64,000 bases of DNA from a virus. Lineage: Duplodnaviria; Caudoviricetes. Below, in pieces: positions 1 to 35,901 of this stretch; within the stretch, counting starts at the first letter, position 1, and the number at the start of each line of letters is the position of its first letter. The notes beneath the pieces are model-generated. The model searched no databases. It saw only the letters and a list, made by a program, of their open reading frames with translations, and was not told where the DNA came from. The position numbers and the translations under genes were made by a program. The DNA is taken from IMG/VR virus record IMGVR_UViG_3300029258_002326, positions 32,001 to 96,000 of that record; one strand, 5' to 3'.

Positions 1-1
1 G

Positions 2-3000
2 CGACGGTCGAATCATTATCGTAGAAGGGAAGGCGCAGGGGTCGCTATACGGAGAGAGAGAGAGGGCTCGGTTTCTTGCTACATGGGAGCACTGCAAGGC
101 GTGCGGGTTCGACATGATTATATCATTCAACCATGCAAGGGACCCCGATCTGTCTCTCGGTCCATTTGTGACACAGGAATTTGTGGAGATGGTGAAACAG
201 GGGTTTGTTCCCATGTCACTGCTTTCGGACAATCGTGCCACTGGGGTTGCGGCAAGGCGAACGGGCTTTGGGCATCACGGGAAAAGAGTAGCTGGAGGAG
301 ACAGAAAGTATCTGTTCAGCACTGTGTCTCCGGACGGGGTGATCGTCAATTGCAGGACAAGGAACAGCCTGCGTGTAGCCGATCATCTTTGCTCTCAGAG
401 CGGGGTTGTTTCTGTTGTAGGCGAAGACAAGATGAGTGCTATTTATCACAAGGTGAATGGAGAGGGGCGCCAGACGGTTGCAGACTTCATGGTTACTCGC
501 AGCGACGGACATATTATTTTTGTGAATGTAGAGAGCAACACGTTTGCAGAGAGCAAGGGCCTCTGTCATCGTATGAATGCAATGTGGGACCATTGCAGGG
601 CTGTCGGTTGCAGTTTCATGATGGTATTTGCCGATGCGTCCGTGGATCCAAATGTGTGGGAGGGTCCGTTTGTCACGGATGCGTTTGTCGAGCGCGTCAT
701 GGGCACAGGGGTGATTCGACAAGGATTAATGGCCGATGCCAGAGTTCCTGCGTTGACGGTGGCGTCTCCGAGCGGGAGCACGATCCATTGCGCGACAGAG
801 AAGGAGATGAGGCTGGCGGAGTGCCTATGTCAGCAAGAGGGCGTGGAGTCCATTTCCTCAACAAAGAGGGAGTGCGTGGCGAGGTTCGAGTTCGAGGGGC
901 GGGCGCGAAGGGCTGTGGCGGACTTTATTGTTCTCATGCGGGACGGGAGAGAGGTGGTTGTCTATTCCATACATGGGACAAACGCGAGGAGCGTATCATC
1001 AAGGAGTGCGCTCATGGCTATGTGGGATCACTGCAAAGAGATGGGCATGAGCATGTTGCTAGCCCTCAAGGAAGCGAGGAATCCAGATCTGTCCCTTGGT
1101 CCGTTCGTGACGCAGGAGTTCGTGGATGGGTATATGCGCGGAGATGCCAAGAGGAGTGCGCTCATAGACAAAAGGCCAAAGGGAAGGAGACCATCTCCGT
1201 TGAAGGGCAGGAAACTTGGTCCTCGCAAGAAAATGACGAACTTGAGTTCGCAGGAATCCGCCCCGAAAGAACACATGTCGAAGAAATCCCTGTCGGTCTT
1301 TGCCTCGCGGAAGTAGTGTCCGTTTCTGCCCTGCCCGCTGAACAAACATATTCTCTATGCACGGAGCATCAGACGTTCATCGCTGATGGGTTCGTGGTGC
1401 ATAATACGAACTTCCCGCCGAACCGTAAGAGCCAGCAGATCACTACAGCTATGGGCCAGAAGAAGACAAAGGCTCACTTTGATATTGTGGAGAAGGTCTA
1501 CCGGAACTTGGTCCGGCGAATAAAGTCCAGGTTCCAGGTTGCAGGCGGGGATTTCCCTGGGATGATCATCTTGGCTTCTTCGGCTGCTACCCTGGACAGT
1601 TTCACTGAGCGGAAAATCCGGGAGAGCAGGCTTGATTCCTCTGTCTTCGTCCGAGATCACACTCAGTGGACGGCCAAGCCTGGGTCTAACTTCTGCGGGG
1701 AGAAGTTCTGGGTTCTGTGTTCGGCGTCCTCTATGCGCTCTAGGATAATCGGAGACGATGAAGTGAAGCACTTCACCGACGAGTGGCTGGAGGAGAACGA
1801 TTCTTTTTTGATCGACATTCCGGTTGAGTACAAGTCGGACTTCGAGACAGACATTGAGAATGCACTAAGGGACCTTGCTGGTATATCTACTCAGGCTATA
1901 TCGATTTATATCCAGAGGCCCGACGCGGTGGACGCGTGTGTGAGCGAAGAGATGGAGCATCCGTTTACTGCGTATGAGTGGACATCCGGGCAGGCCGGGG
2001 CGTTCAAGTGGAACATTCTGTGTAACATGTTCGAGCGTCGGCTGCCTGGCGGATACACGGAGACAGCGTGGTCCCCCAAGATTAATCCTTCGAAGATGAG
2101 ATGGTGTCACATTGATACATCTCTCTCGGGGGACTGTACGGGTTTCTGTGTTGGTCATATAGACAAGTGGGTTGAGGTAGTAAGGCGAGACGGGGACGGG
2201 GTTCGTTACACGGACCTGGCACCCTCTTACGTCATTGACGTGATGTTGCGAGTGAACCCACCGGCTGGAGAGCAAATCTACATGCCGGACTTGCGTCGTT
2301 TCATTTACGAACTACAGGCACATGGTTATCAGTTCCTTGGGTTTTCGTCGGACACATACCAGTCGGCGGAGATGCACCAGCAAGTAAAGAGAAGGGGGAT
2401 TTCTACCCATATCATATCGACGGATACGTCCACGGATCCTTACGATGAGCTGAAGATGGCGATGTACGAGAACCGGATTACGTACTATCATTATCAGCCA
2501 TTTATTGAGGAAATCAAAGACTTGGAATATGATCGCAACGTGGGCAAGATCGATCATCAGCAGGCCGGGTGTTTTGTCGGAGAGACGCGGATTCCTCTTC
2601 TGGATGGAAGCTGCCCTATGATCTCAGAGTTGGATGGGGTGGATACGTGGGTGTACTCCTGTACAGAGGGTGGTCGCATTGTTCCGGGCCGAGCAAGGGG
2701 TCGATTAACGAAAGAGGTGACCGAGCTTGTGGATGTGGTTCTGGACAGCGGGGCTGTCGAGAGGTGTACGCATGAGCACCTTTGGATGTTGAGGGACGGG
2801 ACGTACAAGAAGGCATGCGACTTGGATCCTGGCATTGACCGTTTGATGCCGATTGATTTGAATTCTTTTCCGGTTGAGCACAAGGTCAGGCATGTAACTC
2901 CTGTTCGCCTTGATAAGCCGGTGGCTGTGTATGACTTAGAGGTTGAGGAGTATTCCAACTTCTCGCTTTCTTCTGGAGTGTTCGTCCACAACTCCAAAGA

Positions 3001-3223
3001 CGTTAGTGACGCAGTAGCGGGTGTGGTGTATGGTTTGATGAAGACATCGACCAAAATCCCTGCGATTGTGGGCGATAGTAAAAGTGCCGCTGTTGAAAAC
3101 GAATACGACTGGGTCTCACCTATGATCCAGACGGACGGCATAAGCGCCGAAGAGCTAAGGGACATGAAGGACGCGGGAGATACAGACGTGTCGGAGTATG
3201 TCCCTATTGTGTTTGGAGACTGA
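2..3223 (+). CDS. terL: Terminase large subunit, 5' truncated, interrupted by two inteins
   Basis: Frame open from position 2. The extein after 1405 has MIILASS (coupling-motif-like), the RNaseH-like HIDTSLSGDCTG, and after splicing KIDHQQAG|SKDVSDAVAG. It lies directly upstream of the portal gene. Confidence 0.9.
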   Translation, partial: RRSNHYRRREGAGVAIRREREGSVSCYMGALQGVRVRHDYIIQPCKGPRSVSRSICDTGICGDGETGVCSHVTAFGQSCHWGCGKANGLWASREKSSWRRQKVSVQHCVSGRGDRQLQDKEQPACSRSSLLSERGCFCCRRRQDECYLSQGEWRGAPDGCRLHGYSQRRTYYFCECREQHVCREQGPLSSYECNVGPLQGCRLQFHDGICRCVRGSKCVGGSVCHGCVCRARHGHRGDSTRINGRCQSSCVDGGVSEREHDPLRDREGDEAGGVPMSARGRGVHFLNKEGVRGEVRVRGAGAKGCGGLYCSHAGRERGGCLFHTWDKREERIIKECAHGYVGSLQRDGHEHVASPQGSEESRSVPWSVRDAGVRGWVYARRCQEECAHRQKAKGKETISVEGQETWSSQENDELEFAGIRPERTHVEEIPVGLCLAEVVSVSALPAEQTYSLCTEHQTFIADGFVVHNTNFPPNRKSQQITTAMGQKKTKAHFDIVEKVYRNLVRRIKSRFQVAGGDFPGMIILASSAATLDSFTERKIRESRLDSSVFVRDHTQWTAKPGSNFCGEKFWVLCSASSMRSRIIGDDEVKHFTDEWLEENDSFLIDIPVEYKSDFETDIENALRDLAGISTQAISIYIQRPDAVDACVSEEMEHPFTAYEWTSGQAGAFKWNILCNMFERRLPGGYTETAWSPKINPSKMRWCHIDTSLSGDCTGFCVGHIDKWVEVVRRDGDGVRYTDLAPSYVIDVMLRVNPPAGEQIYMPDLRRFIYELQAHGYQFLGFSSDTYQSAEMHQQVKRRGISTHIISTDTSTDPYDELKMAMYENRITYYHYQPFIEEIKDLEYDRNVGKIDHQQAGCFVGETRIPLLDGSCPMISELDGVDTWVYSCTEGGRIVPGRARGRLTKEVTELVDVVLDSGAVERCTHEHLWMLRDGTYKKACDLDPGIDRLMPIDLNSFPVEHKVRHVTPVRLDKPVAVYDLEVEEYSNFSLSSGVFVHNSKDVSDAVAGVVYGLMKTSTKIPAIVGDSKSAAVENEYDWVSPMIQTDGISAEELRDMKDAGDTDVSEYVPIVFGD
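3..1316 (+). CDS. Nested, out-of-frame tandem TnsA-N-like PD-(D/E)XK nuclease (putative homing endonuclease), 5' truncated
   Basis: Frame 3 is open from position 3 (DGRIIIVEGK...WEHCKACGF). It has three related domains (VADFxV..DG...WDHC...GPFVT) and a basic C-terminus (SPLKGRK). Two repeat copies differ only at synonymous sites in this frame. Confidence 0.75.
   Translation, partial: DGRIIIVEGKAQGSLYGERERARFLATWEHCKACGFDMIISFNHARDPDLSLGPFVTQEFVEMVKQGFVPMSLLSDNRATGVAARRTGFGHHGKRVAGGDRKYLFSTVSPDGVIVNCRTRNSLRVADHLCSQSGVVSVVGEDKMSAIYHKVNGEGRQTVADFMVTRSDGHIIFVNVESNTFAESKGLCHRMNAMWDHCRAVGCSFMMVFADASVDPNVWEGPFVTDAFVERVMGTGVIRQGLMADARVPALTVASPSGSTIHCATEKEMRLAECLCQQEGVESISSTKRECVARFEFEGRARRAVADFIVLMRDGREVVVYSIHGTNARSVSSRSALMAMWDHCKEMGMSMLLALKEARNPDLSLGPFVTQEFVDGYMRGDAKRSALIDKRPKGRRPSPLKGRKLGPRKKMTNLSSQESAPKEHMSKKSLSVFASRK
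1237..1250 (+). repeat. Dispersed palindromic motif, copy 1
   Basis: CGAACTTGAGTTCG, inside the intein/nested ORF. Confidence 0.9.
2570..2992 (+). mobile_element. Terminase intein 2, 141-aa mini-intein
   Basis: G|CFVGETRIPLLDG ... CTHEH (block B) ... VYDLEVEEYSNFSLSSGVFVHN|S, with no endonuclease domain. Confidence 0.93.
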
Positions 3224-3224
3224 T

Positions 3225-6071
3225 ATGGGATTTACCGAACTAGTCAAAGGGCTCTTCAAGAGGGACAGGGATGTCCAGGCAGCAGCTATTGCCAAGGGTA
3301 CGGCGATTGCTACCAACGTCTCTGTTGACAGTATGGATCCGAGTAGCGGGACAGAGGGCGTCAATGCCCTTCAGAGCCAGCTAGCCATCGAGCAAGATCT
3401 GATTTCTCGTTACATAGATTACGAGAATATGGACGACTATGTTGAAACCAGCGCAGCTCTAACGGTGTTCGCGGATGACTCTACTATTCCAGATACCCTC
3501 CATAGGAAGACCGTGTGGGCTACGTCGGAGGATCGGCTCGTTCGCGATCTTCTGAACGACATGCTTCACAGGATGATCCGTATCGAGGAGGACGCCTGGG
3601 TCACAGTTAGGAGCTTGGCAAAGTACGGGAACTTGTACGGGGAGGTTCTGACCACAAAGGGCGGGGTAATAGGTATCAACTGGCTTCCCGCACCGTCGAT
3701 ACGTAGAATAATAAACAGCAAAGGCGTCCTTCTTGGGTTCATCCAAGATGTGTCTGGGCAGTTCAACTACGATGCGGGGGCGCTTGTAGAGGCTCTAGAG
3801 GCTGGCAAGAAGCCCATTCCTGAAAACGAGAACAACTCTGGGATTACCTTCTTCTACCCTTGGGAGATGGTCCATTGGCGGCTGCGCTCCAAGCGGCTTC
3901 GCTCTCCTTACGGGTACGGTGTTCTAGACAGTTCACGGTGGATCTGGAAGCGTCTCCAGTTGATGGAGGACACAGCCCTGGTTCAAAAGCTGACAAGGGC
4001 TCCGGGTCGGTATGCGTTCTACGTGGATACCGGAGACTTGCCGCCTAAAGAAGCGGTGGCTCTTGTCCGCAAGGTTAAGAGCGGATTCAAGAAGAAGCGT
4101 CTGATCGATCCGAGCACAGGCCAGCTGGATCTTCGCAATAACCCGCTGTGCCTAGCGGGTGACACGGAAGTTCCTCTCCTTGATGGGAGTAAAAAAACGA
4201 TAGTCGAGATGGCGGAAGCGTTCGACAGGGGCGAGGAGCAGTGGGTTTACGGCGTTGACAGGAAAAATAACAGCAAGATGGTTCCTGGCAAGGTTGTGTG
4301 GGCAGGTCAGACACGTAAAGACGCTGAGCTAGTGCGCGTTACATTAGATAATGGCGAGTCTTTCAGGGTTACTCCTGATCATAAGTGCATATTGAGAAGC
4401 GGAGATCTGAAGGATGCCCAGGACTTGGTTCCTGGCGAATCCTTGATGCCGTTGCGTAGGACAATCTCTTCTTTTGAGAAGGGAGACACGATGGACGGGT
4501 ATGAGAAGGTCTACGATCCGTCCAGCAAGAAATATGTGTATACGCACAGGATGGTTGTGCGGGAACTAGGGATGAAGGAAAAAGGCAAGCTCACTCATCA
4601 CAACGCAGGGAAGCTGAATAACAATCCTAGTTGCCTTGAGAGCATGACATGGAGAGAGCACTCGGAGCATCATTGTAAACTGGGGCAAATGGGCGGTGCT
4701 AAACTCAGAGAGCTTCGCAAGACGGATAAAGCTCTGGATCAAAAGTTACGAGATGCAGCGTCGAGGACGCTTAAAGAGCGTCACGCTGATCCTGAGTGGA
4801 AAAAGAGGAATGCTGAGGCAGTGCGTCGGAGTAACATCGAGCGTGATAGTGGTAGGTACATCCGTGCCTATAACGATTCTGACAAGCATGTAGAAGACAA
4901 CGCGCAGAGAAGCTCCGCCATGAAGGCGTTCTGGACCGATGATGCCAGGTCTGAGTATTCGGAAACTAGGACGATCAGCTACTCGGATGTCTTCATTTCG
5001 GCGCTAGAGGAATTCGTCAGGAGCAACCCTGGGTCGAGCGCAGACGATGTGGCAGACTTCGTGTCTAGCGATTCTGTTGCTCTAGGTCTTCTCAATGAGG
5101 GAAGTTGCCGCGTGATAAAGAAAGCCCATCGTCATTTGCTTTTAAAGGCGTATAGGGCGCATGGCTATTCTAACTTCAGCGAGTTCAAGGAATCTGCGTG
5201 TTCCTACAATCACAAAGTTGTGTCTGTTGAGCGTCTTTCCGAGAGAGAGGACACGTATACGCTGACTGTTGACTCGTGTCACAACTTTGGCCTTTCTTCT
5301 GGGGTTGTAGTTTGCAACTCGCCATCCGAAGATTTTTGGATTCCTACCCGTGGAGGGAAAGATTCCACAAGGATCGAAGTCATCTCTGGGCCAGATGTTC
5401 AGATGATGGACGACGTGGAATACTTCCAAGGCAAGCTGGTTACATCGACGACGGTTCCGAGGCGCTTCATGGGTCTTGGGGATCCTGGTGACTCTACGAA
5501 CATGATGGCGTCCCAGGATGACGTGAGATTTGCCCGTGCCTGTATGAGGCTCCAGCGTGAGTACGTGCAGGGGCTTGAGAAGGTTGCCCGTATACATCTC
5601 GCGGCGTTGAACATCGATCCCGATTCTGTGCCTTGGCAAATCAAGATGACGGTTCCGTCTGCGATCTTCGAGATGCAGCAGATTGAGGTTATGAATGCCC
5701 AAGCTGGGCTGGCGTCTTCGCTGTCTGATTACATGAGCAAGCCTTGGATTCTCCAACGCGTGTTCAACTTCACGAGAGACGATGCCCAGGCTATGATCCA
5801 GGCGAAACGCGATGAGGAGTCCGGGGATGTTGTCCGGGAAGCCGAAGCGCAAGCGAAGGTCATGAAGTTATTCCCCGAGCTTGAGGGCGCACTCGACGAC
5901 AAAGACGGGGGAGGGAAAGAAGAAAGCGTTTCCCCTAAGAAGGCACCTATAGCGGAGAACGAGGACAGGAGGCTTCTTCGCTCCTTGAGCAAGAAGGCTA
6001 ACGCGATTGAGCGTTCTGTCACTCGGATCAATAAAATGTCACGGATCAACGGGTCCGGAAAGAGGAGTTAG
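3225..6071 (+). CDS. Portal protein (T4 gp20-like) with intein
   Basis: Motifs QLMEDTALVQKLTRAPGRYAFYVDTGDLP and the spliced NNPL|SPSEDFWIPTRGG..TRIEVISG match the gp20 family. ATG 3225 follows GGAGA. Confidence 0.93.
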   Translation: MGFTELVKGLFKRDRDVQAAAIAKGTAIATNVSVDSMDPSSGTEGVNALQSQLAIEQDLISRYIDYENMDDYVETSAALTVFADDSTIPDTLHRKTVWATSEDRLVRDLLNDMLHRMIRIEEDAWVTVRSLAKYGNLYGEVLTTKGGVIGINWLPAPSIRRIINSKGVLLGFIQDVSGQFNYDAGALVEALEAGKKPIPENENNSGITFFYPWEMVHWRLRSKRLRSPYGYGVLDSSRWIWKRLQLMEDTALVQKLTRAPGRYAFYVDTGDLPPKEAVALVRKVKSGFKKKRLIDPSTGQLDLRNNPLCLAGDTEVPLLDGSKKTIVEMAEAFDRGEEQWVYGVDRKNNSKMVPGKVVWAGQTRKDAELVRVTLDNGESFRVTPDHKCILRSGDLKDAQDLVPGESLMPLRRTISSFEKGDTMDGYEKVYDPSSKKYVYTHRMVVRELGMKEKGKLTHHNAGKLNNNPSCLESMTWREHSEHHCKLGQMGGAKLRELRKTDKALDQKLRDAASRTLKERHADPEWKKRNAEAVRRSNIERDSGRYIRAYNDSDKHVEDNAQRSSAMKAFWTDDARSEYSETRTISYSDVFISALEEFVRSNPGSSADDVADFVSSDSVALGLLNEGSCRVIKKAHRHLLLKAYRAHGYSNFSEFKESACSYNHKVVSVERLSEREDTYTLTVDSCHNFGLSSGVVVCNSPSEDFWIPTRGGKDSTRIEVISGPDVQMMDDVEYFQGKLVTSTTVPRRFMGLGDPGDSTNMMASQDDVRFARACMRLQREYVQGLEKVARIHLAALNIDPDSVPWQIKMTVPSAIFEMQQIEVMNAQAGLASSLSDYMSKPWILQRVFNFTRDDAQAMIQAKRDEESGDVVREAEAQAKVMKLFPELEGALDDKDGGGKEESVSPKKAPIAENEDRRLLRSLSKKANAIERSVTRINKMSRINGSGKRS
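4149..5318 (+). mobile_element. Portal intein (390 aa) carrying an HNH endonuclease
   Basis: L|CLAGDTEVPLLDG, VTPDH, HNH-type YTHRMV..THHNAGKLNNNPSCL..EHSEHH, ending HNFGLSSGVVVCN|S. Confidence 0.92.
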
Positions 6072-28291: not shown

Positions 28292-28755
28292 ACAAACTGG
28301 TCACCAGAGGGCTTGGGCCAGGCCATCTACTGATCACTGGCGGATTTAACGTAGGCAGATTCCTTGATGAGCTTGTGGAGATTCTCCGCATGACATCAAA
28401 GATTGCGACGTCCATGGGTCTTACATCCAAGGTCGTCACGTCCATGGATCTTGTGTCCAGGACGTTGTCATCTATGGGGATCACGTCGGGTGTTACAGCG
28501 TCCATGGATCTTGTGTCGAAGGTAACGGAATCCATGGATCTGGTGTCCAGGGCGCTGTTGTCCATGGATCTGTCGTCTAAAGTCACAACGTCCATGGGGA
28601 TTGTGTCCAAGACGTTATCGTCCATGGAGCTTTCATCTAAGACATTGTCGTCCATGGATCTTTCATCTAAAGTTGCAACATCTATGGAACTAGTGTCCAA
28701 AGTAGTGGCAGCCGTGACCGGAACATCGAAAGTGGACCTAGAGGGAGAAGAATAA
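28288..28755 (+). CDS. Protein with about 11 tandem 10-aa repeats
   Basis: SM(D/G/E)LxSKxxx repeats; TC(C/T)ATGG recurs every 30 nt from 28411 to 28681. Confidence 0.65.
   Translation: MNKLVTRGLGPGHLLITGGFNVGRFLDELVEILRMTSKIATSMGLTSKVVTSMDLVSRTLSSMGITSGVTASMDLVSKVTESMDLVSRALLSMDLSSKVTTSMGIVSKTLSSMELSSKTLSSMDLSSKVATSMELVSKVVAAVTGTSKVDLEGEE
28411..28710 (+). repeat. 30-bp coding tandem repeat (10 copies)
   Basis: Units start at 28411, 28441 ... 28681. Confidence 0.9.
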
Positions 28756-29063
28756 TGACCTGTAGCACTCCATGTGATTGTCCAGGAAAGTACTATGTCG
28801 GAGACATCGGGACTATTATCATTATCGATGTTTGCAGCGATATAACTACGGCTACCCTCATGGCGTTGGACGTAACCAAACCGGACGGAACCACCGATAG
28901 GTGGGTGGGCTCTCTTTCTGGGTCAACGAGTATTCAGTACGTGGTTGACGTGGATGACTTCGACCAGGCGGGAGAGTATCGAGTTCAGTCTTATATTGAG
29001 ATGCCGAACTGGAGTGGGCACGGGGACACTACCCAGTTCACAGTTAGCGAAGTGTATCAGTAA
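28755..29063 (+). CDS. Small BppU-N-like Ig-fold structural protein
   Basis: GDIGT..., KPDGT..W, IQY....DFDQAGEY.VQ motifs. Confidence 0.6.
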   Translation: MTCSTPCDCPGKYYVGDIGTIIIIDVCSDITTATLMALDVTKPDGTTDRWVGSLSGSTSIQYVVDVDDFDQAGEYRVQSYIEMPNWSGHGDTTQFTVSEVYQ

Positions 29064-29959
29064 TGAGCGAGAAGACTCTCAGGTATAGGCCGCCAAGGCT
29101 TTCCACAGAGTCTCCTGTGCCTGCGATCTTTATGACCCGCAAGCACATCAAGATGTACAACGAGATGGTTAGCGATGCGCTGGACAGGGCTGACTGGGGG
29201 ATGATGCTGTTCCTATTGGAAGTAGCGAATATCGTGAGGAGCAAGGTTCAGCAACTGGCGCCAGATCTTCTTGTTGGAAAAGAAAAGGTTTCATACGCGG
29301 ATGATCTTCGCATTGCCCTTCTCCATGTCGAGAAGAGCAACGTAGCCGTTGCGATATATCTCGATTCCAGGTCGTTCAAGGTAAGCGAGAAGGACGTGGA
29401 TAAACTCGCTTTGTTTTTTCAGCCCAAACATGGGTCGCCGGAGTGGGTTGACGTGCTGAGGCACTATGGTCCTTGGCCGTCCGACATGCTCCCGTTTTAT
29501 GTTCCAGAGGGAAAGGCGCGGATTATCTCGCGCCGTGCTCGCGAGGATGAGATTGGAGCACTGAAGAGACGGATACTGAAGCAGCGTAAAGCCATACAGA
29601 AGGCACTGAGGGCGACCAAGGCTCCGAGCTATGAAATCCAAGAAGACGGTTACAACGCTACGTCTGGGAATGCCGTCGGGATTGTGGCTAGAGAAGACAT
29701 GGGGTACAATGTGCTCAGGGCAGAGTTTGGGTACGACGGGGAGTCGCAAAATGCTCACTGGAGACCTGCTCTGAGGGCATTGGATGACGAAATCCCTGGC
29801 CTAATGAGAAAGTATATCGAGTATGTTGAAACCGGCAGAGAAAGCTCATTTAACATACCCAGTGAAGTGCTGGAGATGACCAGTGCTGAATACAGAAAGG
29901 GCGATGCGTTTGCGAGAGCGCTTGCGCCGTATGCACCCACGGGGAAAGTTGGAGGATGA
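29063..29959 (+). CDS. Putative neck/tail-completion protein
   Basis: EFG...HWRPAL motif; lies upstream of the tail terminator and sheath. Confidence 0.45.
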   Translation: MSEKTLRYRPPRLSTESPVPAIFMTRKHIKMYNEMVSDALDRADWGMMLFLLEVANIVRSKVQQLAPDLLVGKEKVSYADDLRIALLHVEKSNVAVAIYLDSRSFKVSEKDVDKLALFFQPKHGSPEWVDVLRHYGPWPSDMLPFYVPEGKARIISRRAREDEIGALKRRILKQRKAIQKALRATKAPSYEIQEDGYNATSGNAVGIVAREDMGYNVLRAEFGYDGESQNAHWRPALRALDDEIPGLMRKYIEYVETGRESSFNIPSEVLEMTSAEYRKGDAFARALAPYAPTGKVGG

Positions 29960-29960
29960 C

Positions 29961-30134
29961 ATGGAAGATAAGCTGAAGGAACTAAACGTAACGTTGAAGG
30001 ATGTAGAGAACAACCTGATGAGTCGAAAGATTGAGCGCCAGGATGCGACGATCGACGACGCGTTGGAGATTATCAATATGGCCCAGGAAGCTGGAGCCAT
30101 CGAAGTAGACGATTGCGCAGCGTGCGGAGACTGA
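29961..30134 (+). CDS. Small hypothetical protein
   Basis: ATG 29961 after GGAGG; 57 aa, ends with CxxC. Confidence 0.5.
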   Translation: MEDKLKELNVTLKDVENNLMSRKIERQDATIDDALEIINMAQEAGAIEVDDCAACGD

Positions 30135-30138
30135 ACTC

Positions 30139-30154
30139 GCGAACTTGAGTTCGC
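30139..30154 (+). repeat. Dispersed palindromic motif, copy 4
   Basis: GCGAACTTGAGTTCGC, intergenic. Confidence 0.92.
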
Positions 30155-30166
30155 AAGGGGCAGCAA

Positions 30167-30865
30167 ATGACAGTAATCGGAACAGCGGATATTCGAGACT
30201 GGGATGAAGGGTGTATGCAGACTCTCGGCGCCGAGATCACGACATATGTTGTGGACGGCGATACCCGGAATATTTACGCGTGCGATGTTCCGGGACTTGA
30301 CTCTGGCTTCCCTGCCATAGATGGAAAAGTTCCGTGTCAATTTGTTGAGCCAGAGGGAGTGTATCAGCCGTACAGGGTTCCGTGTTTCCAGTTTAGGCGT
30401 TCTGATATGACTCCGGCGTTTGATCGCCACCCTTGGTATCAATGGGTTGCAAGAGGCCCTTCGAAGACAGCCAGGAAGGTCACTCTTGAAGACGGGACAG
30501 AGGGTTATACTGAGTATGAGAACCAATGGCGGGGTACTCCGTTTGACATATCTTACGAGTGCAGCGTCATTGCGAGGCGACAGCAGGACTCAACCCTTAT
30601 GCTGACATATGCGCTTAGGCACTTTCTTCCGCCGAGCTTCATTTTCAAAATAATTGACAGTCTAGGGGACGTGCGGGAATATGATGCTGTAGATGTGTCT
30701 ATTACGAACGCTTCGGAGCTTGTCGATATTGCGGACAGAGTTGTTGCCTGGTCGGTGTCCTTTGTTGTTCGTGGCGAGGTTGATCTACATGACTCGCGTG
30801 AATTCCCGGCCATGTTGGAACCGAGGATTACGTATGAGCAATTCGTGATAGGCGAGGAGGATTAG
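30167..30865 (+). CDS. Tail terminator/sheath stabiliser (gp15-like)
   Basis: PFDISYECSVIARRQQD...WSVSFVVRGEVD; position before the sheath. Confidence 0.6.
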   Translation: MTVIGTADIRDWDEGCMQTLGAEITTYVVDGDTRNIYACDVPGLDSGFPAIDGKVPCQFVEPEGVYQPYRVPCFQFRRSDMTPAFDRHPWYQWVARGPSKTARKVTLEDGTEGYTEYENQWRGTPFDISYECSVIARRQQDSTLMLTYALRHFLPPSFIFKIIDSLGDVREYDAVDVSITNASELVDIADRVVAWSVSFVVRGEVDLHDSREFPAMLEPRITYEQFVIGEED

Positions 30866-30867
30866 AA

Positions 30868-31305
30868 ATGCCGTGGTTTTACTATTCAGGAACTGTTTCG
30901 AGATCTATCCCTGTAAAAAAAGGTTTGAGCGTTGCGGTGCGGCCACATTCGAGGGTTGAGATTTTCGATGCTCAGGCTCGCGAAGTGCAGAGTTTGATCA
31001 AAAAAGGGCAGCTGAAGAGGACCGGCAAGCCCGCAGGCGTTGAGAGCACAATTAACGCTGAGACAGTGACAGGAAAAGACATTGAGAGTGTGACTCCTCG
31101 CTCGGCTATCGCTGATAGCTTTGCGGAAAAAGGAATCTCCACTGGTCCTGACAAGCCCCCTAAGAAGCTCAAGGGGGCTCCCGAGATGACATCTGCTGAA
31201 GTAGGATTAGCTGAGGGTGACAAGCCCGTGGTTGACGAGTTGAAAAGCGTTGAGAGCAAAAAAGAAAAACAAGGCAAAGGAAAAAGCAAAAAACGCGATG
31301 CGTAG
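30868..31305 (+). CDS. Hypothetical protein
   Basis: GGAGG RBS; ORF before the sheath. Confidence 0.5.
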   Translation: MPWFYYSGTVSRSIPVKKGLSVAVRPHSRVEIFDAQAREVQSLIKKGQLKRTGKPAGVESTINAETVTGKDIESVTPRSAIADSFAEKGISTGPDKPPKKLKGAPEMTSAEVGLAEGDKPVVDELKSVESKKEKQGKGKSKKRDA

Positions 31306-31333
31306 GCGCTAAACTCGGCAAACGGAGCTAAAA

Positions 31334-34195
31334 ATGACAGATTACACGTACCCAGGGGTATATGTGCAGGAGCAGTCGAGCGGTCCAGGACCGATCACTG
31401 GCGTCTCCACATCGAACTTAGGATTGCTCGGTTGGACTAACAAGGGTCCAATCGACGAGCCTACACTGTGCACCAGCTTCTCTGATTTCAAGACGAAGTT
31501 CGGGACATTTACCGAAGACGGCCTAACGCCAACAATGGCGTATGCGTTCTTCCAAAACGGTGGGCAGCGTGCGTACGTCGTGCGTGCGGCTCCGTCCGAT
31601 GCTGACGAGGCATACTACGACTACGAGTACACGATTCCCTCCGGGAGCGAAGAGGATCTTGGAAACACAGTCGAGGCGAGTGGCATTTACGAGCTTCAAC
31701 TTGCACATCCCCCGGTTACGCCGGGTTCGGTGACGATTACCTTCGAGGGTACTCTCACCAATATCTTTACTGACCCAGGTTCGGACGGAGTGCTTGTCGC
31801 TTCTGGAACTGGCGCTGGCGGATCGGGATCTATCGATTACACCACTGGCGAAGTCAACATTACGCTGACCAACCCTGCTCAGTTCACAGGTAGCTCCTAT
31901 CACATTGAGGCCGTGTACACTTATCGCGTGTTCCGCTTCCAGATGAAATGGCCTGGGGCTGCGGGGAATTATTACCGCGTAAGGATCACTCCTGGGTCTG
32001 ATGACTACCAGGTGTCTGGACAGGCTGAGTGGACTCGGTTCAACGTGTTTGTTGACGAGGATATTGATGCCGGGGCAACTGGCATTTCCTCATGGGTGGT
32101 GGATGAGCAGTTTACCGACTTGGTATTCGACGATCCATCCGATCCGAACTACGTAGCCACGATTTTGAATGCTGATTACAATGGCTCGGATTTCTTCGAG
32201 GTCATTGGATACGGCAACGAAATGAACCCGACTGAGCTGGCTGGTGTTGCCACGACAGCAGAGGATTTCTCTGCGACTATGGTACACAGTGACGACTCTT
32301 CGGTTGTCACTCCTGACCACTACAACACGAAGTGGAAGGGTTGGACTTACGACCTAGCGAACGGAGCATATCCTGCGACGTTCACCGCCAGCTTCACATT
32401 TGAAGAGGGTGGGCCTCTCATGGCCAGAAGCGTTGCAGCGGCAGCTACTGCTACTGTAGTGGGTCCAGATGTCTTCGATACGACATTGCTACCCATCACC
32501 GCTGGGACGGTTCGCATTAGCGCCAAGCTGACAGGTGACGGATTCGTAGACATCGTGGACGACGGAGCCGGTAACCTCACAGAGGCAAAGACATCCACAG
32601 CCGTGGGTACAATCGATTACACAACCGGTGCCATTGCTGATACGGGTGCTGTAGCTAACCAACTCAACGTTGGCGGTGTTGGTCTTGCTGACACATTCGC
32701 AGTTGGCTCTGACATCCGCTGGTGCAGTGGGACTCAGATCGGAACCGGAGCAGCTGGTCCTGCGGCTGCGGCGGCTATCGTATCTCCTGGGACGGCTTCT
32801 GCTCCTGCGGCAATCACACCTGGCAGCGTTCGCATCTCTGCTACTCTGACTGGCGACGGAACGGTATCCATCGTTGATGACGGAGCGGGAAGTCTCTCTG
32901 AGTCGCTGACGAGCACTGTGGTTGGATCAATCGACTACACAACCGGAATCATCTCCGACACTGGCGCTACAGCGAATCAGCTGGACGTAGGCGGTGTTGG
33001 TCTTGCTGACACGTTCGTAGCGGGTTCTGCGATTTACTTGGAATGCCAGTACGCAGCCGTGGTCGACGTTTCTGATGATGGAGACGGATACCTCTCGCTG
33101 GCTACCACGCAGGCGACTGGTTATCCTCAGAAGTTCGTTCTTGATTCCAACGGGACCAACGAGATCGATTACACGACTGGCAACTTTACGTTGACCTGGT
33201 CGGTGAGTGGGAATCCTGCTCTCAGCATTTCCTCGGCGGTCACTCAGGTAGCCACGTACTATACATACCCAAGCACAAGCATTGAAGGGGAGATGGCGCT
33301 GGGAAGCAACGGATCTGCGATGACGTCTTCGGACATCGTTGGAGCGTCCTTGGCTTCTGACCAGAAGGGCCTCTGGGCGTTTGGCAAGGTTGATGAGTTG
33401 ATGCAGTTAGTTGCATCCGACTTCCAGACCGATGTCACTGTTGCCGACGCGCTAATCACCTATGCAGAATTGACACAGGACAAGTTCGTTATCCTGACAG
33501 TTCCTGCTGGACTGACTCCGCAAGAAGCTCTCACTTGGAAGAAATTCCAGTTGAACAAGTACACCTCCTACGCTGCTTTATACTACCCGCACATCAAGAT
33601 CATCGATCCTGTGACGGATGTAGCGACAGACGTTCCTTGTGGTGGTCACGTAGCAGGCGTCTATGCGCGTACTGATACAGTCCGCAACGTAGGCAAGGCT
33701 CCTGCGGGCACCGACGACGGTCGTCTTAACTGGGCAATCGGCCTAGAGCAGGATCTAACTCCTGAGCAAGTCGGAACGGTATATCCGAACCGAATCAACT
33801 GCTTGGTTCAATGGCCGCACACTGGTCGATGCGTATGGGGTGCTCGCACTCTAGACATCGCAGGCGGAGAATGGCCGTACATCCAGGGTCGTCGTTTGTT
33901 CATGTTCCTGAAGAAGTCCGTGTTCAACGCGACTCATGGTCATGTGTTCAAAAACAACGGACCTCAGCTGTGGTCTGCCATCAGAACTCAGGTTTCCAGC
34001 TTCATGACAGGTTTGTTCCAGGCCGGTTATTTCGCGGGAACCACTCCGGACGAGTCGTTCTTCGTAGTATGCGACCGAACGAACAATCCTCAGAACACCG
34101 TGGATCAGGGCATTGTATTCTGTGACGTTGGTGCAGCTACCAACAAACCAGCAGAATATTTGGTATTTAGATTTTCCCAAAGAAGCCTAGCATAA
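31334..34195 (+). CDS. Contractile tail sheath protein with inserted repeated domains
   Basis: YPGVYVQE, KGPIDEP, FFQNGG.RAYVVR, YAALYYP, GVYARTD..RNVGKAPAG, WGARTL, KPAEYLVFR. Confidence 0.96.
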   Translation: MTDYTYPGVYVQEQSSGPGPITGVSTSNLGLLGWTNKGPIDEPTLCTSFSDFKTKFGTFTEDGLTPTMAYAFFQNGGQRAYVVRAAPSDADEAYYDYEYTIPSGSEEDLGNTVEASGIYELQLAHPPVTPGSVTITFEGTLTNIFTDPGSDGVLVASGTGAGGSGSIDYTTGEVNITLTNPAQFTGSSYHIEAVYTYRVFRFQMKWPGAAGNYYRVRITPGSDDYQVSGQAEWTRFNVFVDEDIDAGATGISSWVVDEQFTDLVFDDPSDPNYVATILNADYNGSDFFEVIGYGNEMNPTELAGVATTAEDFSATMVHSDDSSVVTPDHYNTKWKGWTYDLANGAYPATFTASFTFEEGGPLMARSVAAAATATVVGPDVFDTTLLPITAGTVRISAKLTGDGFVDIVDDGAGNLTEAKTSTAVGTIDYTTGAIADTGAVANQLNVGGVGLADTFAVGSDIRWCSGTQIGTGAAGPAAAAAIVSPGTASAPAAITPGSVRISATLTGDGTVSIVDDGAGSLSESLTSTVVGSIDYTTGIISDTGATANQLDVGGVGLADTFVAGSAIYLECQYAAVVDVSDDGDGYLSLATTQATGYPQKFVLDSNGTNEIDYTTGNFTLTWSVSGNPALSISSAVTQVATYYTYPSTSIEGEMALGSNGSAMTSSDIVGASLASDQKGLWAFGKVDELMQLVASDFQTDVTVADALITYAELTQDKFVILTVPAGLTPQEALTWKKFQLNKYTSYAALYYPHIKIIDPVTDVATDVPCGGHVAGVYARTDTVRNVGKAPAGTDDGRLNWAIGLEQDLTPEQVGTVYPNRINCLVQWPHTGRCVWGARTLDIAGGEWPYIQGRRLFMFLKKSVFNATHGHVFKNNGPQLWSAIRTQVSSFMTGLFQAGYFAGTTPDESFFVVCDRTNNPQNTVDQGIVFCDVGAATNKPAEYLVFRFSQRSLA

Positions 34196-34285
34196 CCGAG
34201 GATTTTGACTGTGAATTGTTTGACACAGCATTCTGTTTCCAATAGAAGCGCAGCACATGTTGCTGTGAAAGAAATGGAGACTAAT

Positions 34286-35143
34286 ATGGTGTTGTCAAGC
34301 GAGGAGCAGTTGGAAGTTGTTAGGCTGTACGAGGGTGACGATATGACGACGAAGGGCATTGCGAGCAGATTTGGTGTCTCTGATACCACTGTCCGCAATG
34401 TTCTCCGTAGTCATGGGATCACTCCTCACAGGGGGAGTAAGGCGATTTTGCCAGAGGCAGAGGATCGTATGATTTCTCTGTATGAATCTGGCCTCAATGT
34501 CCATGATGTCGCCAAGGGGTGCGGTGTTGTTCCGTCCACGGTTCTGAAGGTTCTGCGTCGCAGAGGGATCGAGCGTCGAGCGAATGTTAAGCGCAAGGTT
34601 CTTTCCGATGAGCAACGTTTGGAGCTTGCTCGTAAATACGCGGACGGATCTACATTTAGCGACTTAGAGAGTGAGTACAAGGTGTCTTGCTCGGTGGTCA
34701 AGAGTTGCTTGGATGAATTCAATGTTGAGCACCGAACCAGTGGCAGGGCCGGGTCGATTGAGTACATGGACACCCTTGGTCAAACGTGGATGTTCAAATC
34801 GACCTGGGAGCATCTTTACGCGCAGTGGCTGGACAAAGGGGGCTTCAGGTGGTCGTATGAGCCGCGCAGTTTCGATCTGAGCGAGCGACGGTGCTACACA
34901 CCAGATTTCTCTGTGGTTGTCGATGGGTCTGTTGAATACCACGAGGTAAAGGGTTGGCTTAATGAAAAGGCAGAGGATCGCATGCGTGAGTTTGTGTCCA
35001 TGTATCCGAGCGAGACGCTTGTTCTCGTTGGGCCTTCTGACATGGCGAGACTAGGATTGGTAGAAGAATGGTATCAGCGGCATTCGATGGCGGATGTCGT
35101 CGATGCTTTTAAGGCGTCCCTGGTAGCGAAGGAGGAGAGATGA
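34286..35143 (+). CDS. Free-standing HTH-repeat + PD-(D/E)XK endonuclease (homing-endonuclease-like)
   Basis: Three HTH-like units (IASRFGVSDTTVRNVL etc.) then FKSTWE..YEP..YTPDF..YHEVKGW. Confidence 0.75.
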   Translation: MVLSSEEQLEVVRLYEGDDMTTKGIASRFGVSDTTVRNVLRSHGITPHRGSKAILPEAEDRMISLYESGLNVHDVAKGCGVVPSTVLKVLRRRGIERRANVKRKVLSDEQRLELARKYADGSTFSDLESEYKVSCSVVKSCLDEFNVEHRTSGRAGSIEYMDTLGQTWMFKSTWEHLYAQWLDKGGFRWSYEPRSFDLSERRCYTPDFSVVVDGSVEYHEVKGWLNEKAEDRMREFVSMYPSETLVLVGPSDMARLGLVEEWYQRHSMADVVDAFKASLVAKEER

Positions 35144-35901
35144 GTACTGAAGTTATCCCAGCTGTGCAGGTGCACGAGGTCATAACCGGCGTGACATTAG
35201 GGGGAGATCCTCCAGATGTAGACGGCACGGACGAGACGCTCTACAGAGGGCGCATCCAGGAATGGCTAGGCGCTTCGCAGGGCGGAGAATTCTCGGCTCC
35301 GGATGGCATAGGGATGCGAGTCTCTCAGGTCTTCTGGAACTTGGATTGTGCCACTGACCCGGATGTCTCCATTTACTTGGTAGACGACGGTGGAATCGAA
35401 TATCTCGTTAGTACGGAGAGTGCTCTTTCGGGGAGCTACATCCAGACAAACGGCGGGATACTCGTTCCTCCTTCGTTCAAGCTCCGGGTTAAGGCGAATG
35501 TGGCGATTGATTCAGCCACATCGGTAGCCTCTGAAGATACAGGGGTTACAGGGGATGGAACGACATCAGATTACAGCGTTCAGCTTGCTAATCGTCCTGT
35601 TACCACGTCGTCTGTTTCACTGGTCGCTGGTTCTGTCACTTTCACCGATAACGGCGCAGGCGTTCTAACGGGTGCAGGCGGCGGCGGCGGAACAGGGACT
35701 ATCAACTATGTGACAGGGGCTGTTGAGATCACGGTGACTACACCTAGTGATTTCAATGGAACGAATGTGATTGCCACGTATGATTATGACAGCGTGGGTC
35801 GTGTGATGGTTTACACGGCGCAGGAATGGGGAACGTTGACAACTTCCTTGTTCGGCCAAATAGGAACACAAGTATTACCACCGGCCATGCAAAGATCGTA
35901 A
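35140..35901 (+). CDS. Hypothetical tail-associated protein
   Basis: Contains the D.G.G.L...GTINYVTG domain also repeated in the sheath. Confidence 0.55.
   Translation: MSTEVIPAVQVHEVITGVTLGGDPPDVDGTDETLYRGRIQEWLGASQGGEFSAPDGIGMRVSQVFWNLDCATDPDVSIYLVDDGGIEYLVSTESALSGSYIQTNGGILVPPSFKLRVKANVAIDSATSVASEDTGVTGDGTTSDYSVQLANRPVTTSSVSLVAGSVTFTDNGAGVLTGAGGGGGTGTINYVTGAVEITVTTPSDFNGTNVIATYDYDSVGRVMVYTAQEWGTLTTSLFGQIGTQVLPPAMQRS

Follow-up and report, generated by a model that had tools for sequence, protein, structure and literature searches.

The window analysed here comprises 64,000 nucleotides of an uncultured phage (Duplodnaviria; Caudoviricetes; positions 32,001 to 96,000 of IMG/VR record IMGVR_UViG_3300029258_002326) and opens inside the gene for a terminase large subunit. 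The terminase ORF occupies window positions 1..3223 on the plus strand and, in the whole contig, genome positions 28681-35220, where the terminase frame runs without a stop for 2180 codons and carries three inteins. In a tblastn search of GenBank phages, window positions 1403-2560 aligned with large terminase subunits of phages, with identities of about 30-33%. Megablast of window 1-6000 and tblastn with the nuclease part described below gave zero matches among GenBank phages.

The beginning of the window (1..1405, plus strand) belongs to intein 2, which as a whole covers genome 30577-33405 (window -1423..1405) and 943 codons. It is placed directly after ...VGLDE, starts with Cys (CLILEAGL) and ends in ...GFVVHN, followed by Thr, the +1 residue of the C-extein (TNFPP...; Thr codon at 1406..1408, plus strand). 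The nucleophile of class 1 inteins is present as Cys1 at genome 30577, and Cys follows DE in all eight loci compared in this work. Block B of the intein N-terminal domain carries the motif (T/S)xxH, which reads SRKHPVLV in intein 2 and SREHP, SLEHP, SPDHP, SLTHP or SYEHP in its relatives. Cys1, CLILEAGL and SRKH all lie in the terminase frame and not in the nuclease frame, and this frame (window frame 2) has no stop through block A and the N-extein. The C-terminal His-Asn followed by Thr (VVHN/T, here at window 1405/1406) is likewise found in 8/8 loci. Taken alone, intein 2 matched the Pfam family Intein_splicing (PF14890) with 23.1 bits, under the gathering cutoff of 35.8 (E 7.1e-5, residues 19-943, profile positions 10-155); the whole terminase reached 88.7 bits against the same family, a score driven by intein 1. 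The third intein of the gene is a mini-intein of 141 codons (CFVGETRIP...SSGVFVHN/S) at window 2570..2992 on the plus strand.

The N- and C-terminal splicing domains of intein 2 are separated, in the intein frame, by a linker of 781 codons, whose window part is 1..1240 on the plus strand. The linker is rich in G (14.5%), R (13.3%), E (11.4%) and C (6.4%), with only 16.5% hydrophobic residues, and it is kept stop-free, yet shows no conservation as a protein. It is followed by the C-terminal splicing domain (ELEFAGIRPERTHVEEIPVGLCLAEVVSVSALPAEQTYSLCTEHQTFIADGFVVHN) at window 1241..1405 on the plus strand, and the same block is found in the mini-intein of the related locus L091.

A nested ORF inside intein 2

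As a sequence-only reading of this DNA had described, both frame 2 (2..3223) and frame 3 (3..1316) of the window are open, and frame 1 contains many stops. In the whole contig the doubly open stretch is longer still, with the +1 frame extending over 874 codons from stop to stop (genome 30692-33313). Nested in this +1 frame is an ORF of 805 codons plus TAG on the plus strand (genome 30899-33316, window -1101..1316), the window part of which (1..1316) is read from base 3. A GGAGG stands 6 nt ahead of its ATG, and (G)GAGG is found 6-7 nt ahead of the ATG in 8/8 loci. The nested ORF starts 107 codons past Cys1 and ends 30 codons short of the terminal Asn, and occupies exactly the canonical endonuclease slot of an intein. 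A homologue, P0003, which is 74% identical and has one nuclease domain, shares its start and end points. On the plus strand ahead of the nested ORF no promoter-like site was detected in L001:2400-7600, which fits translation from the terminase mRNA and proves nothing; no RNA run carrying the stretch was listed. Terminator-like matches inside the ORFs were recorded in the same scan.

The nested protein is composed of NUMOD3 DNA-binding repeats and three TnsA-like PD-(D/E)XK domains. The repeats, about ten in number, lie upstream of the window and were recognized by Pfam NUMOD3 (PF07460) with E 4.1e-44 and 148.6 bits, against a gathering cutoff of 20.4, in 5 stretches; the protein also matches PHROG 314 and 655, 'homing endonuclease'. 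Three tandem TnsA-N-like domains had been proposed from the window letters, and three is the number in all, but the first of them is cut by the window start. This domain, D1, covers window -216..206, so that its C-terminal part is 1..206, and it is followed by the nuclease-like, degenerate domains D2 (282..710) and D3 (726..1148), all on the plus strand.

The AF2 model of D1 (pLDDT 93.1, pTM 0.87) found its best Foldseek matches in TnsA (1t0f_A, E 6.0e-5, TMq 0.63; 1f1z_A, E 8.7e-5, TMq 0.64), and its closest folds are those of TnsA, Hjc and Cas4-like PD-(D/E)XK proteins. D1 is thus predicted to adopt a restriction-endonuclease-like fold. Neither endonuclease VII nor a Vsr structure was among the Foldseek matches listed for D1. 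At the level of sequence, Pfam Tn7_TnsA-like_N (PF08722) scored 19.4 bits (E 0.0016), under its gathering cutoff of 26.5, and a profile search of PDB sequences returned nothing significant (TnsA, E 1.5). In a model of all three domains, D2 takes the same fold as D1; the pTM of this model is 0.41, and the packing between the domains carries no confidence.

Among the three copies in this phage, D1 alone keeps E47, D67, E81 and K83, which by their position are putative catalytic residues. The same E47-D67-E81-K83 set is present in 7/7 aligned loci, in each case in the first domain or the only one (L085 being represented by nested ORF P0008). The E-D-ExK residues are lost in D2, where ExK has become N-V-E, in D3, where GED has become STK and ExK has become Y-S-I, and in the second domain of L088. 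Assignment to the Vsr-like or EDxHD type, the latter named in a 2025 preprint (Gosselin et al.), was considered and rejected, since the GED(K/R/Q)M motif of this element lacks a following His-Asp (Vsr residues as given in the relevant passage of PMC2677866).

Relatives and alleles at the insertion site

Relatives were found by a scan of viral contigs with the nuclease-domain alignment A2. The two-frame layout recurs in 7/7 IMG/VR relatives, and the nested ORF is intact in 8/8 loci. The viral-contig scan with the raw 437-residue window translation gave zero relatives. A metagenome scan with alignment A1 was dominated by NUMOD3 patterns; it left 80 kept loci (L002-L081), none of them with the nuclease domain at E <= 0.01. 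The nuclease family as a whole yielded 12 matches among 1.84 billion representatives. One family member, P0012, is possibly free-standing.

At the insertion site, 13 of the 15 related terminase loci are intein-free, reading ...(G/C/M/I)(L/C)DE/TNFPP... without interruption, and one of the 15 (L091) carries a 180-residue mini-intein at the same site; loci bearing the homing endonuclease (HEN) were found with the nuclease and empty loci with the extein, so that these proportions represent no survey. Mapping the HEN label to the tree of exteins takes 5 changes, at least 4 of these being forced by well-supported branches, and equally few changes were obtained in 71 of 500 label shuffles. Empty and mini alleles are interleaved on this tree, as a homing cycle would predict. 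The similarity of the nucleases also tracks the relatedness of the exteins (pairs L085/L086, L083/L088 and L001/L082), so the patchiness could reflect vertical descent with losses and not ongoing homing.

Selection and stop avoidance in the two frames

A repeated peptide of the nested frame, PDLSLGPFVTQEFV, is encoded at window 144-185 and again at 1083-1124 by copies that differ in 8 of 14 codons, all eight at the third position; in the intein frame the same two repeats read PRSVSRSICDTGIC and SRSVPWSVRDAGVR. This pair, which the sequence-only reading had already offered as a sign of protein-level selection on frame 3, proved exact. Substitutions are concentrated on nested codon position 3 in 28/28 locus pairs. 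Between loci, the nested frame retains 41-73% amino-acid identity, compared with 12-51% for the intein frame. The predominance of change at nested position 3 indicates purifying selection on the nested ORF. Within the last ~55-60 codons, from about window 1241, selection hands over to the intein frame; in an alignment of 9 loci anchored at the intein end, variability across 1241..1405 is highest at intein codon position 3, and the last part of the nested ORF (1241-1316) is carried as a passenger on the C-terminal splicing domain that it overlaps. Frame 2 had been read as meaningful from about 1270; the return of intein-frame selection at ~1241 moves this boundary upstream.

Over the 805 nested codons the intein frame contains 0 stops and the third frame 40. 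Synonymous permutation within the gene gave an expectation of 42.9 +/- 4.7 stops (minimum 25 in 5000), and resampling by genome codon usage one of 54.5 +/- 6.1; in the long ORFs of this genome the median of such stops is 5.6 per 100 codons (125 listed, nested ORF included). At junctions where a preceding NNT codon would create a stop, NNT was found at 0/269, compared with 154/535 (28.8%) at other junctions. The absence of intein-frame stops thus goes far beyond chance expectation. Taken together, the eight loci have 0 intein-frame stops against a summed expectation of 127.9, with 159 in the third frame, and pooled at-risk junctions carry NNT at 0/919 versus 511/2262 elsewhere; in L085 and L086 stop avoidance is by itself not significant, some shuffles likewise reaching 0 stops. 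Judged from these comparisons, purifying selection acts on the protein that the nuclease frame encodes, and the intein frame across the linker is kept stop-free only, as had been suspected of frame 2.

Alternative explanations

The contig derives from a metagenome, and one sensible protein could be obtained only by two frame switches, near window -1101 and within 1241-1316. An endonuclease that is truly in frame and was displaced by two compensating sequencing or assembly indels would have this appearance, but contigs of runs X1 (47,976 nt) and X4 (45,212 nt), which belong to two studies and either of which is possibly the source of this DNA, span L001:4400-7600 with 0 differences and 0 gaps. 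Indels would moreover leave the ~43-54 expected stops in the wrong frame, and they do not explain the recurrence of the layout in 7/7 divergent relatives; we regard such an artefact as next to impossible. Programmed frameshifting by +1 at the end of the N-domain, with a return at the C-domain, would produce a conventional intein-endonuclease fusion, and in this genome the +1 frame is indeed open for 69 codons upstream of the nested ATG. This mechanism is nevertheless very improbable: it supplies no reason for an intein frame whose open overlap with the nested ORF spans 216-805 codons across the 8 loci, L085 and L086 have a +1-frame stop one codon ahead of the nested ATG, and the conserved feature is the Shine-Dalgarno/ATG pair, with no common slippery motif in the 22 nt upstream.

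NUMOD3 endonucleases are characteristic of group I introns in phages, and an intron with its own NUMOD3 endonuclease could be imagined in place of an intein. The association is also touched upon in a passage on GIY-YIG/NUMOD enzymes (PMC2677866). We give this reading practically no weight, as a search of L001:2600-9300 against Rfam stayed without a match at E up to 1, no stop interrupts the host frame, the flanks display the intein hallmarks Cys1, SxxH, HN and Thr+1, and the same site in L091 is filled by the 180-residue mini-intein. It is unlikely, too, that the element is a vertically inherited intein whose nested protein is past homing and is either decaying or recruited for another phage function. 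The tracking of extein relatedness by nuclease similarity, the loss of the catalytic residues from 2/3 domains here and from the second domain of L088, and the rarity of the family would all agree with such a relic. They are set against a nested ORF that is intact in every locus and evolves under purifying selection, the retention of the putative catalytic residues in one domain of every aligned locus, and the interleaving of empty and mini alleles that a homing cycle predicts.

Proposed explanation and significance

Intein 2 is, in our assessment, very probably an intein of the non-canonical kind, with its homing endonuclease encoded by a distinct gene that is overprinted in the +1 frame. According to this model, the terminase precursor would be translated uninterrupted through intein 2, giving an intein with an N-domain of ~107 residues, a hydrophilic, non-conserved linker of 781 residues and a C-domain of ~55 residues, which would then excise itself by splicing and ligate ...GLDE to TNFPP.... 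Splicing is expected to proceed despite the length of the linker, which may hamper it. On the same mRNA, fresh initiation at the Shine-Dalgarno/ATG within the final codons of the intein N-domain would give rise to the 805-residue protein with its NUMOD3 repeats, one TnsA-like domain that is putatively intact in its catalytic residues and two degenerate copies. The nested protein is most likely a homing nuclease, and its target would be the GLDE/TNFPP site of terminase alleles that lack the intein; repair of the cut would copy the intein in. The idea of the intein as a neutral shelter for an overprinted nuclease, put forward in the sequence-only reading, is supported. That reading had named two observations that would speak against it, an intein N-domain in frame 3 together with an indel error near 1260-1316, or frame-2 stops ahead of block A, and neither was obtained; the nested ORF also has a start signal of its own, and the layout recurs in relatives. 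On this idea the nuclease would be translated independently and the linker spliced out.

More tentatively, and with some doubt on our side, the nested proteins might constitute a new family of homing endonucleases that lives almost only overprinted in a terminase intein and that, in this phage, has perhaps become a single-chain three-domain enzyme. To our knowledge, 805 codons would rank among the longest selected same-strand two-frame overlaps in a phage. A family that is almost always overprinted would explain why gene callers have rarely reported it. The chain of one putatively catalytic and two degenerate domains may be analogous to the evolution of monomeric LAGLIDADG enzymes from homodimeric ones.

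The eight divergent loci, the mini and empty alleles and the visible switch of the selected frame make up a clean comparative case of a recently recognised intein type, in which an endonuclease gene of free-standing type sits out of frame within a mini-intein, and the pattern of alleles and selection supports the view of intein origin in which the splicing domain comes first and the endonuclease invades later. The few homing endonucleases that are associated with inteins would gain a likely new nuclease family, which could bring new DNA specificity. Gene callers that forbid long overlaps miss such genes and report a junk linker within a 2180-residue "terminase". The system may also serve as a test bed for the unstructured insert that an intein tolerates and for internal initiation inside a translated ORF.

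Comparison with known systems

Inteins with out-of-frame homing endonucleases have already been described, in preprints of 2025-2026 (Gosselin et al. 2025; bioRxiv 10.64898/2026.09.14.751524), the second of which cites a precedent of 1998 (Gorbalenya 1998). The element described here resembles type D of Gosselin et al. 2025, in which, according to the main text, a same-strand out-of-frame HEN ORF lies between the splicing blocks and the intein frame is uninterrupted. The hosts named there include the terminase large subunit, as in this phage, and its authors suggest the invasion of an intein by a free-standing HEN. The nuclease type is different, being endonuclease VII-like in that main text and NUMOD3 plus TnsA-like PD-(D/E)XK here, and so is the phage lineage, which in our case consists of uncultured sediment and seawater phages with the distant terminase noted above (~30-33% identity to GenBank phages). 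Neither NUMOD nor TnsA occurs in the main text of Gosselin et al. 2025, the supplementary tables of which may list related elements, and literature searches on overlapping or out-of-frame homing endonucleases of inteins, on terminase, and on NUMOD3 and TnsA showed no NUMOD3/TnsA-like intein endonuclease.

The cyanobacterial dnaX intein, with a LAGLIDADG endonuclease in a +2 ORF (Phillips, DeSimone and Gogarten, bioRxiv 10.64898/2026.09.14.751524), is close in several respects. As that preprint describes it, it too combines an overlapping-frame endonuclease with a Shine-Dalgarno sequence, purifying selection in the endonuclease frame with relaxed selection in the intein frame, and the coexistence of mini-intein and empty alleles. 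It differs in its cellular host, its LAGLIDADG nuclease and its frame offset, whereas in this phage the overlap is 805 codons long and there are three copies of the nuclease domain.

In the fractured genes of Dassa et al. 2009 (PMC2677866), the halves of a split intein flank a HEN that is free-standing and of GIY-YIG or Vsr-like type. Shared with the present locus are a free-standing-type HEN with its own start at the endonuclease position of the intein, a 3' end of this HEN that runs into the sequence coding for the downstream part of the intein, and phage terminase as one of the hosts. In those cases host gene and intein are divided between two ORFs, while here the frame is open and encodes one precursor; the active site of the Vsr-like HEN, as given there, has a histidine, in contrast to the canonical E-D-ExK found here. 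A similarly stop-free host frame is known from the ShiLan domain, an insertion in a phage methylase (Arsenault et al. 2025, PMC11855218): there, too, the insertion encodes an endonuclease in a different frame. Unlike the present element, it has no splicing domains and its nuclease is of the HNH type.

Structurally, D1 is best matched by TnsA, the endonuclease of Tn7 (1f1z, 1t0f), which also shares the order of its acidic and Lys residues; the identity of D1 to TnsA is 12-15%, it lacks both the C-terminal domain of TnsA and a transposon context, and it is fused to NUMOD3 repeats. In comparison with the earlier descriptions of this rare layout, what is probably new here is the nuclease type, and the two-frame overlap is unusually long.

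Organization of the terminase gene and its inteins

The window corresponds to bases 32001-96000 of a single contig of 157,265 bases with 51.6% G+C (genome coordinates refer to this contig, negative window coordinates to its part upstream of the window). Frames 2 (2..3223) and 3 (3..1316) of the window are both open, as stated in the sequence-only reading that had proposed a nuclease overprinted in a terminase intein, and stops are numerous in frame 1. Frame 3 is ordinary-looking protein text; frame 2 reads as Gly/Arg/Cys-rich text up to just before ...FIADGFVVHN/TNFPP. That reading depended on frame 2 staying open upstream, and it does, past Cys1 of the intein: the terminase frame runs for 2180 codons without a stop (genome 28681-35220) and contains three inteins. 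Intein 1 (genome 29026-30258, window -2974..-1742) interrupts the P-loop (GIGVGK/C ... VIVHN/T), and its LAGLIDADG domain (Pfam LAGLIDADG_3, 49.7 bits) is of the conventional kind, read in frame with the intein; the same P-loop site is also occupied in the relatives L084, L086 and L087. Intein 2 (genome 30577-33405, window -1423..1405; 943 codons) follows ...VGLDE, and intein 3 (window 2570-2992) is a mini-intein of 141 codons. The portal gene (window 3198-6071, plus strand; Pfam Portal_T4, 193.2 bits) also has an intein (Intein_splicing, 60.1 bits, residues 325-707, CLAGDTEV...GVVVCN/S), the inserted domain of which is in frame and reads by eye as His-rich HNH-like text, so that the terminase and portal packaging genes hold four inteins in total.

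The endonuclease of inteins normally sits between the splicing parts. Within intein 2, the +1 frame (frame 3 of the window) is open for 874 codons from stop to stop in the whole contig, and the start and ribosome-binding site sought by the sequence-only reading were located: GGAGG stands 6 nt ahead of an ATG (genome 30899, window -1101), and it is at this ATG that sensible +1-frame protein begins. The nested ORF ends with TAG at window 1314-1316 and comprises 805 codons. It starts 107 codons past Cys1 and ends 30 codons short of the terminal Asn, and therefore occupies the usual endonuclease place of an intein, but in the +1 frame.

Reliability of the two open frames and avoidance of stops

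An indel artefact as the source of the two open frames, a possibility raised along with the original observation, is excluded. The segment L001:4400-7600 of the terminase region is complete in five sequencing runs from four studies of sediment and seawater, and the contigs of runs X1 (47,976 nt) and X4 (45,212 nt), either of which is possibly the source DNA, cover it in full with neither a difference nor a gap; low-depth pieces from X7 and X8 likewise do not differ from it. Such an artefact would also leave the missing intein-frame stops unexplained. A further contig (L104), which may not be independent, shows 100% identity across 10,000 bases; its record is labelled as an uncultured Dehalococcoidales MAG, which could reflect the binning of a phage contig with bacterial sequence or could point to the host.

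Over the 805 nested codons the intein frame contains 0 stops, against 42.9 +/- 4.7 expected under within-gene synonymous codon permutation (minimum 25 in 5000) and 54.5 +/- 6.1 on resampling by genome codon usage; the third frame has 40. The suggestions that frame 2 is kept free of stops and that stop-making junctions are common elsewhere in the genome were both borne out, the median among the long ORFs (125 listed, nested ORF included) being 5.6 such stops in every 100 codons. In the nested ORF of this genome, NNT codons occur at 0 of the 269 junctions where they would give rise to a stop, versus 154 of the remaining 535.

Scanning IMG/VR with the nuclease-domain alignment yielded seven loci (L082-L088), in all of which an intein at the identical terminase site (...DE/C ... 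VVHN/T) contains a nuclease ORF in its +1 frame, 216-477 codons long counted from the ATG. In their terminase frame 1063-2010 codons pass without a stop, and the third frame is open there for only 0-95. Summed over the eight loci, the intein frame has 0 stops versus 127.9 expected by permutation, and the third frame 159; taken singly, the lack of stops is not significant in L085 and L086 (2.9 and 4.6 expected, some shuffles reaching 0). A Shine-Dalgarno (SD) motif, (G)GAGG, precedes the nested ATG by 6-7 nt in 8/8 loci, its letters falling in intein-frame codons for Met-Glu in this phage and Trp-Arg in five relatives.

Selection on the two frames

Nested position 3 was the most differing nucleotide site in 28/28 locus pairs (0.40-0.75 differences per site versus 0.19-0.50 at positions 1 and 2), and in amino acids the loci were 41-73% identical when read in the nested frame, against 12-51% in the intein frame. 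This pattern argues for protein-level selection on the nuclease frame, as anticipated for frame 3, and for none on the intein frame of the linker. The peptide PDLSLGPFVTQEFV, repeated at 144-185 and 1083-1124, likewise differs at 8 of 14 codons, all at frame-3 third positions, and the frame-2 peptides do change. When nine loci were aligned backwards from the last intein codon, intein position 3 became the most variable over the last ~55-60 codons, which puts the C-terminal splicing domain between about window positions 1241 and 1405. Judged by this shift, the last ~25 nested-ORF codons are a passenger overlapping that domain, an overlap that accounts for the odd yet conserved C-terminal tails of the nuclease family. 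The linker of 781 residues is hydrophilic (G 14.5%, R 13.3%, E 11.4%, C 6.4%), with 16.5% hydrophobic residues versus 32.0% in an extein segment.

The nested protein and its homologues

The nested protein contains NUMOD3 repeats (Pfam E 4.1e-44, 148.6 bits, 5 stretches) and matches Tn7_TnsA-like_N at 19.4 bits, under the Pfam threshold of 26.5. PHROGs assigned it to the 'homing endonuclease' families 314 and 655 via the NUMOD3 part, and weakly to family 15427 ('endonuclease') over the nuclease domain. The sequence profile of the first domain (D1) had no significant match in the PDB. Its structural model (17-row alignment; pLDDT 93.1, pTM 0.87) matched TnsA best (1t0f_A, E 6.0e-5, TMq 0.63; 1f1z_A, E 8.7e-5, TMq 0.64), followed by Cas4-like, Hjc and other PD-(D/E)XK proteins. 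The predicted catalytic residues E47, D67, E81 and K83 are kept in D1, in the first or only domain of six aligned relative loci and in P0008, the nested ORF of L085. The three tandem TnsA-like domains of the sequence-only reading hold as far as the fold is concerned, D1, D2 and D3 folding alike in a three-domain model (pLDDT 82.8) that does not place them confidently relative to one another (pTM 0.41), but the predicted catalytic residues are lost in D2 (N-V-E) and D3 (Y-S-I, GED gone), as in the second domain of L088. In the latter locus (L088:7512-8945) two nuclease domains are present, the second degenerate (T47, G67, E-V-E); thus, tandem duplication with active-site loss is seen in 2/8 loci. 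L088 has a further intein in its C-terminal extein (SISGD/CVTADT...).

The nuclease domain is very rare, with 12 matches in 1.84 billion representatives of the protein databases. The homologue P0003 (74% identical) has one nuclease domain only and shares the first (MPVKGQ) and last (SLSVFASRK) residues of the nested protein. P0012 (237 aa), known as protein only, is without NUMOD3 repeats, no longer has D48, D67 or the ExK motif, and bears a C-terminal extension of ~70 residues unlike the intein-overlap tails; it may represent a free-standing or otherwise placed form of the family. Among GenBank phages nothing close to this phage was found; the terminases of Vibrio, Gordonia and other phages share about 30-33% identity with its own.

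Alleles at the insertion site

The C-extein query retrieved 15 related terminase loci (58-73% identical), 13 of them uninterrupted at ...DE/TNFPP...; the empty loci include identical copies (L089/L090/L102, L094/L095/L096 and L097/L103), and L098 duplicates the contig of L086. At L091 the site is occupied by a mini-intein of 180 residues, whose N and C domains are as in the full inteins and whose linker is short. In this mini-intein (L091:5464-6003) GGAGG is kept at the place of the SD of the homing endonuclease (HEN) type, with no start codon or nuclease after it, and may faintly hint at deletion of a nested gene. On an extein tree of 22 rows (L098 left out as a duplicate; the long L088 branch reflects another intein within the segment used), the HEN label requires five changes, at least four of them forced by well-supported branches, and L086 (HEN) is sister to L100 (empty) with support 100/97. 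This patchy distribution appears in keeping with a homing cycle, although shuffled labels gave as few changes in 71/500 shuffles, and the HEN-bearing and other loci were gathered with different queries. Since nuclease similarity tracks extein relatedness, vertical descent with repeated loss is also a possible account. A second, related phage is present in the same runs over L001:4400-4527 (genome 30400-30527; 23 differences in 128 terminase bases, flanking extein about 82% identical) at depths of 11.8 (X4), 21 (X7) and 12.3 (X8), and its loose end exactly matches the intein-free L089/L090/L102, these 30 letters ending before the insertion site.

Proposed mechanism and alternative explanations

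The observation was hence confirmed and extended, and its interpretation is supported. Dual translation of one terminase mRNA, with nuclease-driven homing, would best explain these data. Ribosomes from the terminase start would produce a precursor in which intein 2, composed of N-domain, long disordered linker and C-domain, splices itself out; ribosomes entering at the internal SD/ATG would produce the NUMOD3/TnsA-like nuclease, whose cleavage of empty alleles at the GLDE/TNFPP site would lead to copying of the intein into them. We infer translation, splicing, cleavage and homing from sequence-level facts.

Double frameshifting into and out of the nested frame is unlikely: it gives no reason for stop avoidance, the conserved feature is the SD/ATG, and in L085 and L086 a +1-frame stop one codon 5' of the ATG leaves almost no room for frameshift entry. 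A group I intron is likewise unlikely, there being no Rfam match, and the host frame is open with intein hallmarks present. That the nuclease is a relic or has been domesticated we regard as rather improbable.

Comparison with known systems

An intein with an out-of-frame HEN is of a kind already described. The cases in the preprint of Gosselin et al. (2025) include a frame-3 HEN of endonuclease VII-like type, and terminase is one of the host proteins; the authors propose that a free-standing HEN invaded an intein. A 2026 preprint (bioRxiv 10.64898/2026.09.14.751524), which cites Gorbalenya 1998, presents an out-of-frame LAGLIDADG gene in a cyanobacterial dnaX intein with the same between-frame selection contrast as reported here, and in PMC11855218 (2025) a methylase insertion free of stops is described as hiding an HNH. 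In the split-gene counterpart of Dassa et al. 2009 (PMC2677866) the HENs are free-standing and GIY-YIG or Vsr-like, and overlaps of 6-69 bp with the downstream intein part occur. The present nuclease, in which NUMOD3 is joined to a TnsA-like domain whose E-D-ExK site is canonical, differs from the endonuclease VII-like, LAGLIDADG and His-dependent Vsr-like enzymes of these accounts. Neither NUMOD nor TnsA occurs in the main text of the 2025 and 2026 preprints, and no relevant paper came from a literature search that combined NUMOD3, TnsA and homing endonuclease. The nested nuclease probably represents a new endonuclease family. The present case also differs from the earlier ones in its phage lineage (uncultured phages of sediment and seawater), in a triplicated nuclease-like domain with one intact and two degenerate copies, and in a two-frame overlap of 805 codons. 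For specialists it provides a striking and well-replicated case of a concept that is itself no longer new.
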